Below, piece by piece: positions 16,846 to 31,188 of a stretch of DNA of 64,000 nt; positions within the stretch are counted from its first letter, which is position 1; each line of letters starts with the position of its first letter. The notes under the pieces were generated by a model. The model did not search any database, had not been told where the DNA came from, and saw only the letters and a list, made by a program, of their open reading frames with translations. The position numbers and the translations under genes were made by a program. Origin of the DNA: an uncultured Flavobacteriales bacterium (GTDB taxonomy: Bacteria; Bacteroidota; Bacteroidia; Flavobacteriales_E; Vicingaceae); assembly GCA_964445815.1 (NCBI GenBank), contig CAYULW010000002.1:27941-91940 (forward strand), given 5' to 3'.

Positions 16846-17652
16846 TTATTTTCTCCAGATTACTTTGCTATTGTGCAAATCTATGCTCTTCATGCTTTCT
16901 AATTCTGAAAGTTGTTTGAGAAGGTCTAAATTAATCAGGCCATCAGAGATAAACAATGTGTTTAAACTCTTGGGAAAATCATCTGGTAATGTGTCAATGA
17001 TAACATGGTTCAAAGACACTTTTTCTAATTGTTTAAACCTTGATAAATCTTCCCATTGAAGAGCGCTTGGTTTATTTCCTATAAAATGAACCTCTTTTAA
17101 GTGCTTAAAGGAGGAATCACCAAGATGAATATGCTGACAAAATTGGATATTCACATGCTCGATGGCTGTTTGCGCATACAACTGCTCTATGTTTGTGAGT
17201 TGATCTGAATAACTGATGCGCAGTATTTTGAGTTGAGGCAATGGCCCTTGTATGTATAAGGTATCATTTTGGAAACCCGAAATAGATAGTCTTTCCAGAT
17301 TTTGCATTTGAGGCAAATGAGATAGATCTTTAATCGACGTACTGCTAATGTGCAAAGATTTGACCTTATTCCAATTGTTCTGAGAAAAGGTTTTAGGCAA
17401 GGCACTTAGATTCAGGTTTAGGTGTAATTCCGGTGTGGAGTTCAAGTGAACGAGTCGAGATAAATCAGTAGTAGAGTCAATATCTATGGCTCCAAAGTAA
17501 CAGTATTGATCTGCCTTTATGCAGTTTTTGATTTGTGTAGAATCAATGTTATTGAGATTGCCGACTACTTTATCAACCCATCCCGGTTGTGCTTTTATGG
17601 AGCAATAAGTCAGAACAATCAAACTTAGACTAATAAATGATTTGATCTTCAT
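16846..17652 (-). CDS. secreted leucine-rich-repeat (LRR) protein
   Basis: Track ORF 16846..17670; probable start at MKIKSFISLSLIVL. LRR-like periodicity: LHLNLNLSALP, LHISSTSIKDLSHL, LERLSISG, LKILRISYSDQLTNIEQL. Confidence 0.55.
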   Translation of the reverse strand: MKIKSFISLSLIVLTYCSIKAQPGWVDKVVGNLNNIDSTQIKNCIKADQYCYFGAIDIDSTTDLSRLVHLNSTPELHLNLNLSALPKTFSQNNWNKVKSLHISSTSIKDLSHLPQMQNLERLSISGFQNDTLYIQGPLPQLKILRISYSDQLTNIEQLYAQTAIEHVNIQFCQHIHLGDSSFKHLKEVHFIGNKPSALQWEDLSRFKQLEKVSLNHVIIDTLPDDFPKSLNTLFISDGLINLDLLKQLSELESMKSIDLHNSKVIWRK

Positions 17653-17745
17653 GAGGTAGTTTTGAGGCATTCACTTGTCCCATTACCATTATTGTGCCGT
17701 AAATTCTAGATTGATGATACTATTGATTTATCAGTACTTCGGTTT

Positions 17746-18249
17746 TTACTCATATTGATAAGGCTCCTTAGTATGAACCATTTTCCTGATATTTTCCAGA
17801 ACTCTCTTCATGTAGATTCTCCAGAACACCTTTCCAAAAATCCAGCAAAATGGAAAAAGTAAGAGCTTATTGGAATGTAGATCATACGTATAGTTAATCT
17901 GTATTTTATTGTGTTCCAATTCTTTCGTTTCCCATTTTCCAACAAACTTGTAAAAACCCAACATCCAGGACTGAAAATGATCCACTTGAATGATCCAGTA
18001 GTGATTTTCTACTCTTTCAATAACATGGTCAACAGAAGCGAACCCTCCTTTTTGGATTAACGATTTTACGACATGTACTTTTTTGCTTGAGCCCGGTTTG
18101 CCCCAATCTTCATCTTCTGTGGTGTGGCTTACTTTAGGGATGAATCCAAATCCGGTATGAATTTTAGAAAGATCACAAAGTATTGCCGTTTTAAATGCCC
18201 GTTCAAGAGAGCAGTCATAAATGGTGGAAACGGTGATACGGGTAATCAT
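17746..18249 (-). CDS. hypothetical protein (possible SRPBCC/START-like fold)
   Basis: 167-aa ORF. No strong motif. Good codon usage continuity. Confidence 0.4.
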   Translation of the reverse strand: MITRITVSTIYDCSLERAFKTAILCDLSKIHTGFGFIPKVSHTTEDEDWGKPGSSKKVHVVKSLIQKGGFASVDHVIERVENHYWIIQVDHFQSWMLGFYKFVGKWETKELEHNKIQINYTYDLHSNKLLLFPFCWIFGKVFWRIYMKRVLENIRKMVHTKEPYQYE

Positions 18250-18276
18250 TTATAGCCTTGTTGAGTATTCTTGTTT

Positions 18277-18933
18277 TTAATTTCCTCCCAATTGCTTAAT
18301 CAGCTTAGCTGTTTCAATAAAATTTGCTGCTTCCGCCATCGATAAAACGGTTTGTCCATTATCCATTATTGAGTTAATGTTCGCCCCATTGTCAACAAGT
18401 AGCTGCACTAACTTTGTTTGCCCATTGTGAGCAGCTGAATGAAGTGGAGTAACACCATGCATTTGCTTGGCATTCACATCAGCTTCATATTGTATCAGGA
18501 GTTTTGCCATTCTCAGGTTTGAGGTAGCACAAGCTGAATGGAGTGGAGTAACTTTGAATTGGTTATTTGCCGCAGCATTCGGATCGGAGCCTTTTTCAAG
18601 CAGTTCTTGGGCTAAGTTTAGATGACCGAAAAATGCAGCAAGCCCTAATATGTTAAAACCGTCAGACGAATAAGCATTTAATAGGTCCGGGTTTTCATTT
18701 AAATGTTGTTTCACTTTTTCAACTTCTCCTAAAGTAGTTGCTTCAAAAATATCAAGTACAGCTTTGTGTTCTCTTAGAATCTGAATTGCTTCAGCATTTC
18801 TACAATAAGCGGCAAATTGCAATATTGAAATTCCTTGTTCTGTCTTACTGTTAGCAAGTGAAGAGTCTTGGTTCAGTTTATTTGCTAAGCGATTATTCTC
18901 TCCTGTTTTAATAAGTTCAATCAGCTCTTTCAT
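18277..18933 (-). CDS. ankyrin-repeat protein
   Basis: 218 aa. Repeated TPLHSA...G...LV.LL...GA(D/N)VN motifs (at least 4 ANK repeats). Confidence 0.8.
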   Translation of the reverse strand: MKELIELIKTGENNRLANKLNQDSSLANSKTEQGISILQFAAYCRNAEAIQILREHKAVLDIFEATTLGEVEKVKQHLNENPDLLNAYSSDGFNILGLAAFFGHLNLAQELLEKGSDPNAAANNQFKVTPLHSACATSNLRMAKLLIQYEADVNAKQMHGVTPLHSAAHNGQTKLVQLLVDNGANINSIMDNGQTVLSMAEAANFIETAKLIKQLGGN

Positions 18934-19141
18934 TCACTTGTATTTTGTTTTGTGGGGCCTAAGATAGGCTCAACTAGCTTTTAAGCAGCTTAGATCTCGT
19001 TGCACACTTTTTAAGTTACTCAAGATTCTCCCAAGTGGATATTCTGTTCTTTTCAATTTGTAAAACACCATAGAATATTGCTGCACCGGCAAGTCCAAAC
19101 AATGAAACGCCTGTCCACTTTGTATTACATACTTGTTTTCA

Positions 19142-29503: not shown

Positions 29504-29587
29504 TCTCTCAAATTAGCCCCAACGGTCTGGCTAAAATGTCGTGCAACAGTTAGATTGTTGGGGCATACACTATAGCCGTTGTTGGAG

Positions 29588-30316
29588 CTAGTGGTTTTTA
29601 TTTTCTTCTTCATTTTTCAATCTCATTATGAACCATTCAAATCCATAAAGTCCTTCAAGGTTCTTTGGAATTTCGTTCAAGTCAGTTTTTTTTCCTGATT
29701 TAAAGTCAGTCAATATAATATGTTCATGTGTTCTATCATTCCATTCGTAAGAATTCAAAGTGTCCAACTTGTTTTTTGTCCATTTGAACTCATAAAACTC
29801 GGTTTGTCCGGGATGTCCGTAGGTCATGCTGTAAGTCCGAAATTGATTTGGGTAGAATGTCGGGTTTGGTATTTCCACTTTTTTTGAAAATTGATCGTTA
29901 TTGTCATCATATAAGTAGCAGTCATAAATATCTGCTAAACAACAACCTGAGGAAGGATACCAATGGATAGCCAAATCAATCACTTTGTCACCGTTAATGT
30001 CGAAAATCGAATCTGACATAAAATTCATCCAACCAAGTCTTTCGGAAAATATTGGTTTTTCATATTCGTCCTTCTCAGAGTACACTTGAATGTAGGTGCC
30101 TGAAAAGTTTGAAAGTCGTATATACTTGTGATTAATTGAGTTTGAGAAAATATGACCTTCCTTTAGAGTCAAAGAGTCATTTTTTATGTTTTCTTTTTGA
30201 CTTTGAATCAGTTTTGTAATTGTTACTGTCGTTTTAAGACTGTCTTGATCGACTTGACAAAAACCAAATTCTGCAAGTCCTAAAATGATTGATATGGTTA
30301 ATAGTGTTCTGGTCAT
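29588..30316 (-). CDS. hypothetical secreted protein (gene B2 of repeat module II)
   Basis: 242 aa. Signal peptide MTRTLLTISIILGLAEFGFCQ. The start codon lies ~14 nt downstream of the repeat element. Confidence 0.5.
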   Translation of the reverse strand: MTRTLLTISIILGLAEFGFCQVDQDSLKTTVTITKLIQSQKENIKNDSLTLKEGHIFSNSINHKYIRLSNFSGTYIQVYSEKDEYEKPIFSERLGWMNFMSDSIFDINGDKVIDLAIHWYPSSGCCLADIYDCYLYDDNNDQFSKKVEIPNPTFYPNQFRTYSMTYGHPGQTEFYEFKWTKNKLDTLNSYEWNDRTHEHIILTDFKSGKKTDLNEIPKNLEGLYGFEWFIMRLKNEEENKNH

Positions 30317-30330
30317 TTTACATTAATCCC

Positions 30331-30536
30331 AACAGTTTGTGTATGGACAGTAGGGCAGGTACGAAGCACTTCACTTTCGGTTTACCACTAAGCCAAAACA
30401 AACGTTTTTACTTTTAATTTTCTTTTTTGTTAAACGTCAAAACTTTGTTTTGGCGTTGCCTGCTCAATGAACAGCACTCTCAATTTATTATTAATTGCCC
30501 TATTGGCTATACACCTTGTTGGTAGCAGTTTTTTTT
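30331..30536. repeat. ~205-bp intercistronic TIR-bearing element, copy 2
   Basis: Aligns end to end with 21941..22145 (about 85% identity). Same termini (TGTGTATGGACAGTAGGGC ... GCCCTATTGGCTATACACC). Begins at the gene A2 stop codon and ends ~14 nt before the B2 ATG. Confidence 0.8.
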
Positions 30537-31188
30537 AATTCCATTTATTTACGTCCTTATTCGATTCGGTTAAATATTTAAGGAAGTCCACACCCAAAAT
30601 TGTAATATTCAAAATATTGTCATCCTCGCGAAGAAGAGTGTAATTAAAAAGAAAATTCAGATACTGTTCGTAGCCATAGTTTTCATAAAATTTTGGATTA
30701 TTTTTTTTCGCATTATCATAAAAGAATTTGATGGATTCTCTAGTCTGTCCGGCATGAGAGTTTACGTGTTCTAATATTCTAATTTGAGACCCAAAAATGT
30801 CATTATAAACAGTATCATAATGTCGCATTATATAGAGAACACAACTATAATTAGTTAATCGGTCTATTTTTTCTTCTGCTGTTTTTAACTTTTCAACTTC
30901 GGTTTCAGTTGCAATAGCCTCTTTGAATGAATCTATTGTTTCAGGTCGAAATAGGCCCACAATACGGTCAATATGCGAAATTTCTTCAGTTTTCTTTTCT
31001 GTAGCTGTAGCTTGCTGTTTTGCTTCAAGTGATTTGTTACCATAACCTACTTTTGTGACGCGGTTAATTAAATCAACTAGAGGTTTCCTAAAAATCAGAA
31101 TGCCAATTATTATAACTAAAGGCCATTTCAAAGTTTCTGCAAGACTGATATAATCAATTGCTTTTTCTAAATTTTCTTGTTCGTTCAT
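30535..31188 (-). CDS. hypothetical membrane-anchored protein (gene A2 of repeat module II)
   Basis: 217 aa. One N-terminal TM helix (WPLVIIIGILIF). No domain recognised. Confidence 0.5.
   Translation of the reverse strand: MNEQENLEKAIDYISLAETLKWPLVIIIGILIFRKPLVDLINRVTKVGYGNKSLEAKQQATATEKKTEEISHIDRIVGLFRPETIDSFKEAIATETEVEKLKTAEEKIDRLTNYSCVLYIMRHYDTVYNDIFGSQIRILEHVNSHAGQTRESIKFFYDNAKKNNPKFYENYGYEQYLNFLFNYTLLREDDNILNITILGVDFLKYLTESNKDVNKWN

Follow-up and report, generated by a model that had tools for sequence, protein, structure and literature searches.

The block at 16846–31188 of the window (the whole stretch of DNA analysed, 64 kb in length) is very probably a chromosomal array of mobile gene cassettes from an integron-like system of Bacteroidota, a reading to which we give a rough probability of 0.85. 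The system appears, by analogy with integrons, to use an Xer-type recombinase, and a cassette would consist of one ORF, sometimes a few, followed by a recombination site on the coding strand. The array is certain for 21.9–31.27 kb and plausible for all of 16.8–31.3 kb, and it begins immediately past the flotillin gene. It is partly fossilised and CALIN-like, because several sites are eroded and no recombinase was seen among the best 25 of the 50 Pfam families matched by window ORFs outside the block. Horizontal acquisition of the block genes as accessory genes is supported by the integron-type sites, by a GC content lower than that of the flanks, and by single genes that recur as cassettes in unrelated genomes. 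An earlier note on this DNA had described an accessory block rich in eukaryote-like repeat proteins and orphan secreted proteins; that observation was partly confirmed, its accessory character being borne out by these same features, and the interpretation attached to it is partly supported.

Genes and sites of the block

The minus-strand ORF run is unbroken across 16846–31188, as had been claimed, and comprises 17 ORFs of at least 99 aa rather than 19 genes; the same run goes past both block edges, from 15436 to 36243, and is thus not block-specific. Flotillin (31278–32723) is the immediate neighbour on one side, whereas YchF/transketolase, given as the other flank, is separated from the block by two genes. 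Pfam supports each of the reported LRR, ANK, CPBP, DUF1330, DUF418, AraC, and TPR assignments, but only one of the two reported GNATs lies within the block (26071–26541), the other being at 1075–1680. After domain searches of the orphans, 9 of the 17 ORFs remain without a family above threshold, and 7–8 block proteins, judged by eye, have a signal-peptide, lipoprotein or TM segment at the N-terminus. The cargo is mostly secreted, membrane or orphan proteins. The features are, in order from the flotillin side:

31209–31273, minus: S1, short site directly past the flotillin stop; 3' end ...TATACTGACGTT|GGTAGCAATT, 5' end uncertain
30535–31188, minus: cassette gene, 217 aa, TM segment at the N-terminus; unmatched in Pfam, NCBIfam, and PADLOC
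30331–30520, minus: S2 (repeat R2), 190-nt B-type site, AAC...GTT; nhmmer B profile E = 1e-69, CM 30 bits, E = 6e-5
29588–30316, minus: cassette gene, 242 aa, secreted; sub-threshold XAC2610-family match
29521–29583, minus: S3, short (63-nt) site AACAACGGCTATAG...TTAGCCAGACCGTT; CM R1 32.9 bits, E = 1.2e-5
28877–29503, minus: cassette gene, 208 aa, lipoprotein-like signal (LASC), no family; between S3 and degenerate S4
28685–28872, minus: S4, degenerate B-type site; GTT changed to ATT, stem eroded
27342–28667, minus: TPR protein, C-terminal TPR (Pfam)
26595–27293, minus: BatD-like secreted protein
26071–26541, minus: GNAT (Pfam)
25625–26038, minus: 137-aa protein
24434–25576, minus: DUF418 (Pfam)
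23489–24382, minus: AraC HTH (Pfam)
23140–23439, minus: DUF1330 (Pfam)
22879–22945, minus: S5, short site, S1 homologue; 3' end ...GATGTT|GTAGCACATT, 5' end uncertain
22116–22853, minus: cassette gene, 245 aa, two N-terminal TM segments, no family
21941–22129, minus: S6 (repeat R1), 189-nt B-type site; nhmmer E = 2e-64, CM 37.4 bits, E = 1e-6
21326–21931, minus: probable cassette gene, ATG at 21931 (~201 aa), signal peptide, no family
20369–21169, minus: CPBP/Rce1-like (Pfam)
19142–20272, minus: 376-aa secreted orphan
18277–18933, minus: ankyrin repeats (ANK; Pfam)
17746–18249, minus: 167-aa protein
16846–17670, minus: LRR (LRR_4; Pfam)
15436–16839, minus: membrane protein, no family, between the block and YchF/transketolase
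12897–15455, plus: DUF3857/transglutaminase/DUF2569 gene, between the block and YchF/transketolase

The block holds structured repeats on the coding strand, two of them ~190 nt long (21941–22129 and 30331–30520) and the others shorter or eroded. Across the 64 kb, CM significance (E < 0.02, E-values being rough) was reached by only four sites, at 21922–22147, 29502–29601, 30312–30538, and 31190–31259, all in the block and on the minus strand, and the CM gave zero matches on 80 Bacteroidota flotillin loci (~1.36 Mb). The last of the four is the CM R1 match of S1 (21.2 bits, E = 0.007). S5 was not detected by the CM; it is 82% identical to S1 over 44 nt, and a 23-nt perfect palindrome is identical in the two. 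In the CM alignment of S3, the stem and both end triplets are aligned, and its 5' arm is homologous to sites behind the homologue of the same gene (29588–30316) in loci L204 and L205. S4 aligns over the entire B-type architecture, with an nhmmer E-value of just 2.6, and its 5' arm is repeat D2 of the repeat search. S2 and S6 are near-consensus; they are 86% identical to each other and share 90% identity with a Persicobacter (Cytophagia) plasmid copy. The 5' arm of S6 contains the stop codon of gene 22116–22853, and the start of 21326–21931 lies 9 nt past its GTT.

The site family and the closure rule

A 20-nt hairpin pattern led to 112 metagenome stretches, ~100 of them truly belonging to the site family, in at least three subtypes; plasmid copies occur in Riemerella, Persicobacter, and Chryseobacterium. 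The site is a 63–190-nt imperfect palindrome whose ends, 5'-AAC...GTT-3', are invariant; it has a long stem and, in most cases, a conserved inner hairpin. Stem cells are paired in 93% of cases compared to 32–43% in slid controls, 0 of 500 shuffles met the observed values, and compensatory changes occur at 13 of 14 stem pairs. More than one copy is present in 37 sequences (34 independent loci), and the inspected arrays run in the order ORF-site-ORF-site.

The arrays follow a closure rule, by which the 7 nt that follow the GTT of a site are complementary to those that precede the AAC of the next. Closure of 6–7/7 was found in 29 of 48 units (mean 4.75), compared to means of 2.34 for same-site flanks and 2.29 for random pairs (p = 1e-12 and 3e-9), and was replicated on plasmids of Riemerella (8 of 9 units) and Persicobacter (15 of 21). 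Under such a circular-permutation rule, each cassette is a unit of its own, with the junction to its neighbour within or beside the GTT, and this complementarity is the hallmark of integron cassettes. In the window, perfect 7/7 closure holds for only 2 of the 17 genes, the mutually unrelated 30535–31188 and 22116–22853: all 7 nt of the S1 3' flank (GGTAGCA) are complementary to those preceding the AAC of S2, as are all 7 nt of the S5 3' flank (GTAGCAC) to those preceding the AAC of S6, and both genes are single-gene cassettes. The units of 29588–30316 and 28877–29503 close at just 4/7 and 5/7, respectively.

Repeats of this kind could instead be MITE- or REP-like selfish elements in spacers, the genes between them being ordinary residents and no cassettes. 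Like MITEs and REP/BIME elements, the sites are short, multi-copy, palindromic, and intergenic, and copies on unrelated contigs are 85–95% identical with sharp ends and imperfect terminal inverted repeats; moreover, same-organism Logan contigs break within S2 and terminate within S6, which suggests many copies per genome. However, no target-site duplications were found around the sites, and their orientation to genes is strictly fixed, with the upstream ORF on the same strand in 46 cases and on the opposite strand in 2, and the downstream ORF in 43 and 0 (metagenome set). The arrays alternate one element per gene, the same genes travel with sites between genomes, and a recombinase is located at array heads. 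The 3' flank of an element pairs with the 5' flank of the next element, not with its own other flank, and transposon insertion cannot produce such pairing between neighbours. Selfish elements are thus a highly improbable explanation.

Conservation of the elements could also reflect a function as RNA, whether as terminators, 3'-UTR stabilisers or small RNAs common to many genes, as they lie at ORF 3' ends on the sense strand, form stable hairpins with covariation, and, in S1 and S5, include a palindrome resembling a terminator. The wobble asymmetry, however, favours the antisense fold. An A.C mismatch, corresponding to a T.G wobble in the bottom strand, is invariant in 64 of 64 sequences; there are 77 AC/CA cells (64 from the invariant pair and 13 from the remaining 14 stem pairs) but 12 GT/TG cells, and the bottom-strand fold is more stable at 78 of 114 sites (p = 1.4e-6). 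An Rfam search of the sites gave no match, and an RNA function leaves both the closure rule and the recombinase association unexplained. The sites may have a secondary terminator role, but RNA function as the reason for their conservation is just as improbable as selfish elements.

Recombinase and comparison with known systems

An Xer/IntI-clade tyrosine recombinase is located at the array head in seven other loci. Its gene is upstream of the array and co-oriented in L110, L123, and L180, arrays were found at three loci fetched via recombinase homologues (L201, L202, and L210), and the Salibacter array is preceded by a truncated copy. The recombinase, of ~375 aa, aligns end to end with XerA, XerC, and XerD, and differs from integron integrases in its extra ~95-aa N-terminus, in being transcribed in the same direction as the cassettes, and in the absence of the IntI-specific domain from those examined (3–4, including L110, L123, and L180); near patch III, one of them has 15 aa where IntI4 has 58. 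This domain is reported to be necessary for integron integrase activity (PMC4889954, citing Messier and Roy, 2001), and the mechanism proposed here is therefore an analogy. The recombinase would excise cassettes as circles and may insert them by recombining the folded bottom strand, as suggested by the bottom-strand wobble excess and by the published homology-independent integration of a Riemerella unit.

The comparison with integrons and CALINs draws on a 2016 paper (PMC4889954) and on Neron et al. (2022; PMC9024848). The Bacteroidota system shares with integrons co-oriented arrays of mostly single-ORF cassettes, each ending in an AAC...GTT imperfect palindrome on the coding strand, with the cassette start complementary to its own site's inverse core and the join at GTT. 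Further shared traits are the bottom-strand fold bias, an asymmetric unpaired spacer that sets the end triplets apart from the main stem, an Xer/IntI-clade tyrosine recombinase heading the array (here in the seven other loci), cargo comprising orphans, TA pairs, and genes for defence and resistance, and IS110-family and group II intron genes within arrays. The window's array resembles CALINs in having no nearby recombinase. In contrast to integrons, the Bacteroidota sites are often longer (123–190 nt) with a conserved inner hairpin, the closure helix consists of the 6–7 nt outside AAC/GTT, little remains of the RYYY/RRRY consensus (-1 Y and +1 R alone), and additional flank positions are conserved (C at -8 and MAT at +7 to +9). 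IntegronFinder surveys reported almost no integrons in the host phylum, Bacteroidota.

In R. anatipestifer, a unit of aph(3')-IVb (27-bp 5'UTR, CDS, and 140-bp 3' stem-loop) was found to undergo homology-independent integration (AAC 2026; PMC13148043), with experimental evidence for its site specificity; the stem-loop was called attC-like, and parallels to it were noted for lnu(H) and blaRATA. This stem-loop belongs to the same element family as the sites described here: on pRCAD0416RA-1, the CM recognises the 140-bp 3' region as a site (66.9 bits), the ATG is located 26 nt past the GTT, and the 27-bp 5'UTR and 140-bp 3' end match a GTT-to-GTT cassette. That study deals with a single resistance gene in a single species, without settling on a mechanism; it describes neither the arrays and their closure rule nor the recombinase, nor the spread across marine Flavobacteriaceae and Cytophagia. 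In Riemerella, the integron-like system carries tet(X) among other resistance genes, whereas the window's cassettes, unlike the aph(3')-IVb unit, carry none.

Xer-dependent modules, such as the pdif modules of Acinetobacter plasmids and IMEX elements, are also discrete gene modules moved by Xer-type tyrosine recombinases, a likeness extended by the end-to-end alignment with Xer proteins. The pdif/dif sites are 28-bp double-stranded sequences with two binding arms, often in alternating orientation, and not long single-strand hairpins with AAC/GTT ends. No cassette arrays with a dedicated recombinase at the head are known to be associated with them.

Origin and cargo of the block

The block genes are AT-richer than the rest of the window (gene GC 0.349 vs. 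0.391, Mann-Whitney p = 5.5e-6; GC3 0.319 vs. 0.361, p = 0.009), but synonymous codon preference does not differ (p = 0.26). Shared codon usage, the lack of intact sites at most of the 17 genes, and the lack of a recombinase nearby (in the best 25 of 50 Pfam families) would fit ordinary, poorly conserved genes inherited vertically, with the sites as old relics irrelevant to their origin. On the other hand, GC is significantly lower in the block, and no block gene adjoins flotillin in the flotillin loci of 80 Bacteroidota relatives. Moreover, the two 7/7 closures and the near-consensus S2 and S6, with their similarity to the plasmid copy, argue for fairly recent acquisition, and vertical inheritance of the block is very unlikely. 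The “core” side of flotillin shows no synteny either in the nearest available genomes. The window contains no tRNA, and no integrase is among those 25 families, in agreement with the earlier statement that neither marks an island boundary; such a boundary is missing because the block would be a recombinase-less cassette array, not a tRNA-targeted island.

The cassette reading applies unevenly along the block. The seven genes of 23140–28667 have spacers of ~50 nt and no detectable sites, a 5'-arm remnant at 26542–26594 being the sole trace. To the left, a candidate eroded site occupies the 156-nt spacer at 21170–21325, with complementary ends GCAGCACAAG...CATTGTGCTAT, and a 5'-arm remnant ACTCAACAAGGCTATAA lies at 18250–18276 (CM 11.7 bits, E = 1.3). 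In the absence of detectable sites, the seven genes and the left third (16846–21169) may therefore be resident genes rather than cassettes, although a cassette origin with eroded sites is plausible for the left part.

Several block genes have relatives in site-bearing loci elsewhere. The ANK gene recurs as a cassette in Arenibacter and one further genome; an orthologue is flanked by sites in L084, and another is followed by a site in L085. Salibacter halophilus has a 73% homologue of 29588–30316 with sites on both sides, homologues of this gene numbering only 68 among 5.8e9 proteins. The 167-aa protein has a 63% homologue in L162, a locus with sites; in metagenome array L128, a CPBP homologue is located directly 3' of a site.

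The earlier note took the repeat proteins and the CPBP protease for eukaryote-like host-interaction or immunity factors, and the block, with its LRR, ANK, CPBP, and secreted orphan genes, could accordingly be an island working as a functional unit. The three domains are real, and 29588–30316, the sole immunity-like match in the block, is just under the threshold of the XAC2610 (immunity-protein) family (NF047539; 34.2 bits, cut-off 35). Cassettes of other arrays include Imm27, GmrSD, Mrr, and D12 methylase genes. However, the reading as eukaryote-like host-interaction or immunity factors is not supported. The ANK protein belongs to a full-length, tightly conserved bacterial orthologue family of varied contexts (57–79% identity in the best 120 of 1494 matches, with named members in Flavobacteriaceae, Chitinophagaceae, Sphingobacteriales, and Cyclobacteriaceae). 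PADLOC matched only the ankyrin repeats themselves and found no system in the block, and no secretion system or toxin partner is present next to it. The separation of the genes by sites and their recurrence one by one elsewhere argue against a co-functioning unit, which is unlikely, while for individual cassettes a defence or immunity cargo is plausible.

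Gene content and borders of the block

The minus-strand block at 16846-31188, next to the flotillin gene (31278-32723), holds a partly eroded array of integron-type cassettes inserted after that gene. It lacks a recombinase and is in this respect CALIN-like, the CALIN being a cluster of at least two attC sites without a neighboring integron integrase. The earlier note had correctly spotted this stretch as an accessory block and had placed all of its genes on the minus strand, which holds for the entire ORF run; the minus-strand run itself (15436-36243) exceeds the block. Its 19 genes became 17 when ORFs of at least 99 aa were counted, and Pfam gives a single GNAT instead of two, while agreeing with the LRR, ANK, CPBP/Rce1-like, DUF1330, AraC, and DUF418 assignments and with a C-terminal TPR region. 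Nine block proteins have no above-threshold family in Pfam, NCBIfam, or PADLOC; the domain search suggested for the orphans (PADLOC and NCBIfam) returned nothing above threshold. By eye, most of these nine proteins carry an N-terminal signal-peptide, lipoprotein, or transmembrane segment.

The ychF side had been described as a flank of the block, but two genes intervene between YchF and the LRR gene. The ORFs at 12897-15455 (plus strand) and 15436-16839 (minus strand) are convergent and overlap by 20 nt at their 3' ends (15436-15455), if the longest ORFs are the real genes. As had been noted from the sequence, the window contains no tRNA gene, and none of the 25 top-ranked Pfam families matched by its other ORFs is an integrase; an island bounded by a tRNA gene or an integrase was rejected for these reasons. 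Outside the block, four proteins contain the T9SS C-terminal sorting domain (Por_Secre_tail) and several contain TPR repeats. The sole Rfam match in the window is a full-length small SRP RNA of the Bacteroidales type (37614-37720, minus strand, 109.7 bits), which fits a Bacteroidota chromosome.

Compositional analysis of the window, a chromosome of the Flavobacteriaceae type with a GC content of ~38%, bore out the expected deviation in part. Gene GC is 0.349 in the block and 0.391 in the other 39 genes (p = 5.5e-6), and gene GC3 is 0.319 versus 0.361 (p = 0.009), whereas synonymous codon preference does not differ between the block and the other genes (p = 0.26). Synteny was assessed in 80 genome loci with flotillin as the anchor, using tblastn with 42 window proteins. 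The window flotillin shares 90% identity with its counterpart in a Bacteroidetes MAG and 82-85% with the Aureibaculum and Lutibacter proteins. The window and the 80 loci have nothing in common but flotillin and its upstream partner, and synteny is absent on both the block side and the "core" side, even in the nearest genome (90% flotillin identity).

The ANK protein has 1494 homologues, the best 120 of which are full-length and 57-79% identical; those with names belong to Flavobacteriaceae, Chitinophagaceae, Sphingobacteriales, and Cyclobacteriaceae, and their gene neighborhoods are unrelated to each other. A conserved homologue family in unrelated neighborhoods speaks against an exotic effector. 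Among defense and immunity families, PADLOC matched only ankyrin-repeat profiles in the block and no Pfam Imm family was detected; a known anti-phage defense or polymorphic-toxin immunity cluster was rejected on these curated families. The protein encoded at 29588-30316 (minus strand) matches an XAC2610-related family at 34.2 bits, just under the cut-off of 35; XAC2610 is the immunity protein of a Xanthomonas T4SS effector.

A repeat family with attC-like ends

Look-ups of exact proteins yielded only short Logan contigs from the same organism. These match the window at 100% identity and break at 22057-22086 and 30428-30455, positions that fall within the two copies of a ~190-nt direct repeat (S6, 21941-22129; S2, 30331-30520), which are 86% identical and 8.39 kb apart. 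The Logan contigs of SRR15635848 and SRR15635858 end within S6 and S2. Since contigs end inside S6 and S2 although the two copies have no exact 31-mer in common, further copies are likely to exist elsewhere in the genome. Read along the coding (minus) strand, a copy begins at an orphan gene's stop codon or just past it, and ~10 nt separate its end from the following ATG. The genes upstream of the two copies (22116-22853 and 30535-31188) showed no similarity in a paralogy test, indicating that the flanks are conserved and not the genes. The repeat ends form an imperfect inverted repeat, CAACAAGGTGTATAGCCAATAGGGC ... GCCCTACTGCCCATACACAGAACGTTG, around an inner hairpin, AACCGAAAGTGAAGYRCTTC, found at 21974-21993 and 30363-30382 (minus strand) in the window copies. 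No Rfam family matches the repeats, whether gathering thresholds or E ≤ 1 are applied, and the hairpin motif was not detected when viral contigs were scanned.

In metagenome contigs, a hairpin scan recovered 112 stretches, ~100 of which are true relatives and ~10 the chance expectation. These sites comprise at least three subtypes, A and C (~123 nt) and B (~190 nt), the last being the type in the window. Similarity between family members always extends from ...YAAC to CGTT, and the AAC and GTT triplets pair in 61-63 of 64 aligned sites. Outside the triplets, the only positions conserved as in the attC consensus (RYYYAAC and GTTRRRY) are -1 (Y) and +1 (R). The upstream ORF is on the same strand as the site in 46 cases and on the opposite strand in 2, and the downstream ORF in 43 and 0 cases, respectively; like attC, the sites are thus AAC...GTT imperfect inverted repeats 3' of an ORF on the coding strand. 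In profile searches, 37 sequences (34 independent loci) had multiple copies; those arrays that were inspected have a tight ORF-site-ORF-site order, with five sites each in loci L125 and L167 (a 2.24-Mb contig) and four in L121. The adjoining ORFs are highly diverse, as 95 ORFs matched 81 Pfam families, including the beta-lactamase fold, GmrSD, Mrr, D12 methylase, Imm27, LinB-like nucleotidyltransferase, HTH, and many DUFs. In classical attC sites the central part is variable, whereas in these Bacteroidota sites the inner hairpin AACCGAAAGTGAAGYRCTTC is kept across subtypes.

The site flanks also have recurrent features. Outside the closure helix, one side has an A-run and then C at -8 (46/59 sites; e.g., 30521-30535 in the window), and the other has M-A-T(-T) at +7 to +10, with A at +8 in 58/59 sites, and then an A-run (e.g., 30321-30330). 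The bare 3'-flank motif GTTRN5MAT is not enriched window-wide (42 matches versus 50 expected) and is informative only by its position, just upstream of block start codons.

The fold was examined in a structure alignment of 64 diverse A- and C-type sites. Compensatory changes occur at 13 of 14 stem pairs, and 93% of stem cells are paired compared with 32-43% for slid partners; none of 500 shuffles reached the observed values. This covariation supports folding. A faces C at one stem position in every one of the 64 sequences, and in 62 of 64 at the position adjoining the AAC/GTT triplets. An A.C mismatch on one strand is a T.G wobble on the complementary strand, and over 15 stem positions AC/CA cells number 77 (64 at the invariant pair, 13 spread over the remaining 14) versus 12 GT/TG cells. 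The bottom strand forms the more stable fold in 78 of 114 sites (p = 1.4e-6), and the end triplets are set off from the stem by an asymmetric internal loop. The wobble asymmetry and the greater predicted stability of the bottom strand argue for a structure of bottom-strand DNA rather than of mRNA.

In integrons, where the crossover is at G|TT, each cassette includes the bases just past the GTT that precedes it, and these are complementary to the inverse core of the site at the cassette's own end. This closure was measured in 48 units, each between two consecutive sites, by comparing the 7 nt after GTT with the 7 nt before AAC. Pairing of 6-7 of the 7 positions was observed in 29 of 48 units (mean 4.75), compared with means of 2.34 for flanks of the same site and 2.29 for random pairs (p = 1e-12 and 3e-9). 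The result was replicated on annotated plasmids, in 8 of 9 units of Riemerella pRCAD0416RA-1 and 15 of 21 units of Persicobacter pPP2. The units are therefore discrete cassettes joined at GTT, circularly permuted in the manner of integron cassettes with the join within or next to that triplet. Terminal inverted repeats are present, as in MITEs, but target-site duplications of 2-8 nt do not occur beyond the shuffled expectation and the orientation to genes is fixed; the closure rule and the lack of such duplications exclude a MITE-type insertion.

Sites and cassettes in the window

A covariance model (CM) built from 64 A- and C-type sites was searched against the 64 kb. At E < 0.02, matches are confined to the block and to its minus strand, and no match was found in ~1.36 Mb of control Bacteroidota loci.

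Cassette sites and closed cassettes of the block
S1: 31190-31259, minus strand, CM match (E = 0.007)
S2: 30312-30538, minus strand, CM match over a B-type repeat
S3: 29502-29601, minus strand, CM match, 63-nt site (E = 1e-5)
S4: 28685-28872, minus strand, eroded B-type copy
S5: ~22879-22945, minus strand, S1 homologue undetected by the CM, accepted only through its homology to S1 and a 7/7 closure
S6: 21922-22147, minus strand, CM match over a B-type repeat
Cassette 30535-31188: closure 7/7, GTT/GGTAGCA ... TGCTACC/AAC
Cassette 22116-22853: closure 7/7, GTT/GTAGCAC ... GTGCTAC/AAC

Sites S2, S3, and S6 carry both end triplets, and the short sites S1, S3, and S5 are without the inner hairpin. 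When closure was tested across the whole window, exactly two single-gene solutions were obtained, both 7/7. Closure is weaker for 29588-30316 (4/7) and 28877-29503 (5/7), and only arm remnants of sites are left among the seven genes at 23140-28667 and in the left part of the block (16846-21169). Counted as attC-type, the sites make up a CALIN, with four CM-significant and two to three degenerate sites within 9.4 kb. As 8.39-kb direct repeats, S2 and S6 could have bounded one excisable island, but each is the closing site of a separate single-gene cassette. For a TTCGAAT-like stretch, a tRNA remnant or att site had been considered and was likewise rejected, as ARAGORN finds nothing and the structure of the family is different.

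Homologues of several block genes are associated with sites in other genomes. The ANK homologue of Arenibacter sp. GZD96 has sites on both sides, and in a second genome a site follows the gene. The 167-aa protein has a 63% identical homologue in a site-bearing locus, and a CPBP homologue is located directly after a site. Homologues of the protein encoded at 29588-30316 are rare (68 among 5.8e9 proteins). The one in Salibacter halophilus forms a cassette bounded by two sites of a four-site array; in one other genome, ligA and recQ flank an isolated homologue that has just a weak site.

The array-head recombinase and resistance plasmids

In three site-bearing metagenome loci (L110, L123, and L180), the gene for a tyrosine recombinase of 375-390 aa immediately precedes the first site and shares its strand. 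The protein contains the Phage_int_SAM_4 and Phage_integrase domains, and the NCBIfam model that it matches best is "XerA / integron integrase". Against TIGR02249, the IntI model, the three proteins score 191-204 bits (cut-off 265) with the match in two pieces, while the alignment with archaeal XerA runs end to end. Relative to VchIntIA/IntI4 (2a3v), 15 aa stand in place of 58 (residues 189-246), indicating that the IntI-specific domain, which is regarded as essential (PMC4889954), is absent. The recombinase family is widespread in Flavobacteriaceae, including Planktosalinus and Aequorivita. Loci retrieved through the protein and not through the sites (P. lacus, a 3.6-Mb genome, and a Chryseobacterium plasmid) have arrays immediately downstream, the Salibacter array sits after a truncated recombinase copy, and the association between recombinase and array was observed in 7 of 7 loci examined. 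A complete integron has an attI site and a Pc promoter beside intI; here only weak, short CM matches (E = 0.03-0.6) occur right after the recombinase stop codon, in four loci (L110, L123, L201, and L204). A divergent gene of 117-118 aa, without a family, is located immediately upstream of the recombinase in L201 (9510-9863) and L202 (9516-9872) and may encode a regulator or partner.

The system is integron-like by every structural test run. A complete integron has an IntI with the additional domain near patch III, which neither L110, L123, and L180 nor the window possesses, and no recombinase occurs in the 64 kb among the 25 top-ranked Pfam families of the remaining ORFs; for these two reasons, the window array is outside the integron family as now defined.

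Resistance plasmids carry the same type of array. The multiresistance region of Riemerella anatipestifer pRCAD0416RA-1 (NZ_CP073240.1, 1-15604) is a cassette array of this family, with a site after each of aadS, tet(X) (twice), lnu(I), a relE/HTH pair, blaOXA, estT, a phosphotransferase, and aph(3'). In 2026, aph(3')-IVb with 27 bp upstream and 140 bp downstream was reported to integrate without homology in R. anatipestifer ATCC 11845; an attC-like fold was noted for the unit and the mechanism was left open (PMC13148043). On pRCAD0416RA-1, the ATG of aph(3') lies 26 nt past GTT and its site scores 66.9 bits with the CM, and the published boundaries match a GTT-to-GTT unit. Apart from that attC-like remark (PMC13148043), no description of the system was found in the incompletely covered literature. 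The Persicobacter psychrovividus plasmid pPP2 (NZ_AP025294.1, 1-24189; 404 kb, Cytophagia) has at least 28 sites in 24 kb, including a B-type copy 90.5% identical to S2. It contains a 461-nt unit (GTT/ATCTCTG...AAGAGAT/AAC) four times and a fifth, 371-nt unit with the same ends. In Acinetobacter baumannii p34AB (NZ_MK134375.1, 3292-9902), within the known ISVsa3-'xerD'-tet(X3)-resolvase-ISVsa3 context, the 'xerD' before tet(X3) is homologous to the array-head recombinase (51% identity over aa 117-363) but truncated, and after tet(X3) there is only a weak 48-nt site remnant (13.7 bits, E = 0.2). Together, the truncated homologue and the remnant hint that the tet(X3) captured by ISCR2 came from an array head in Flavobacteriia.

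Among bacterial gene-capture systems, integrons are the textbook case. We consider it slightly better than even (roughly 0.55) that Bacteroidota (Flavobacteriia and Cytophagia, marine as well as animal-associated) own an integron analogue, taking all parts of the following reading jointly. A ~375-aa Xer-like recombinase without the IntI-specific domain would run a gene-capture platform by acting on long bottom-strand hairpin sites with AAC/GTT ends, and would build chromosomal and plasmid cassette arrays, including that of the window. The system would have been missed by integron surveys, would be the native vehicle of the tet(X), blaOXA, lnu, estT, and aph(3') cassettes in Riemerella, and would be the source, at the head of one of its arrays, of the Acinetobacter tet(X3) that ISCR2 captured. 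IntegronFinder 2.0 reported almost no integrons in Bacteroidetes (PMC9024848).

The same structural rules (AAC/GTT ends, closure, and bottom-strand bias) under a Xer-like recombinase could mean either that folded single-strand cassette capture evolved, or was retained, outside IntI, or that the definition of integrons needs widening. The reading would provide a concrete mechanism for the published puzzle of homology-independent integration of Riemerella resistance genes (PMC13148043) and a testable origin for tet(X)-type cassettes. It would also account for much of the "orphan, co-oriented, AT-rich" flexible blocks in marine Flavobacteriaceae genomes, to which kind the window's block belongs, and the CM and the closure test are simple tools able to annotate such arrays genome-wide.

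Transposases of the IS110 and IS91 families and group II intron reverse transcriptases (RTs) are located inside or at the end of arrays.

Transposase and RT genes in arrays
L201: 15275-16048
L202: 13873-15603
L204: 6788-8305
L210: 13212-14213 and 15678-16994

These genes are reminiscent of the IS1111-attC elements and group IIC-attC introns, which target integron attC sites.
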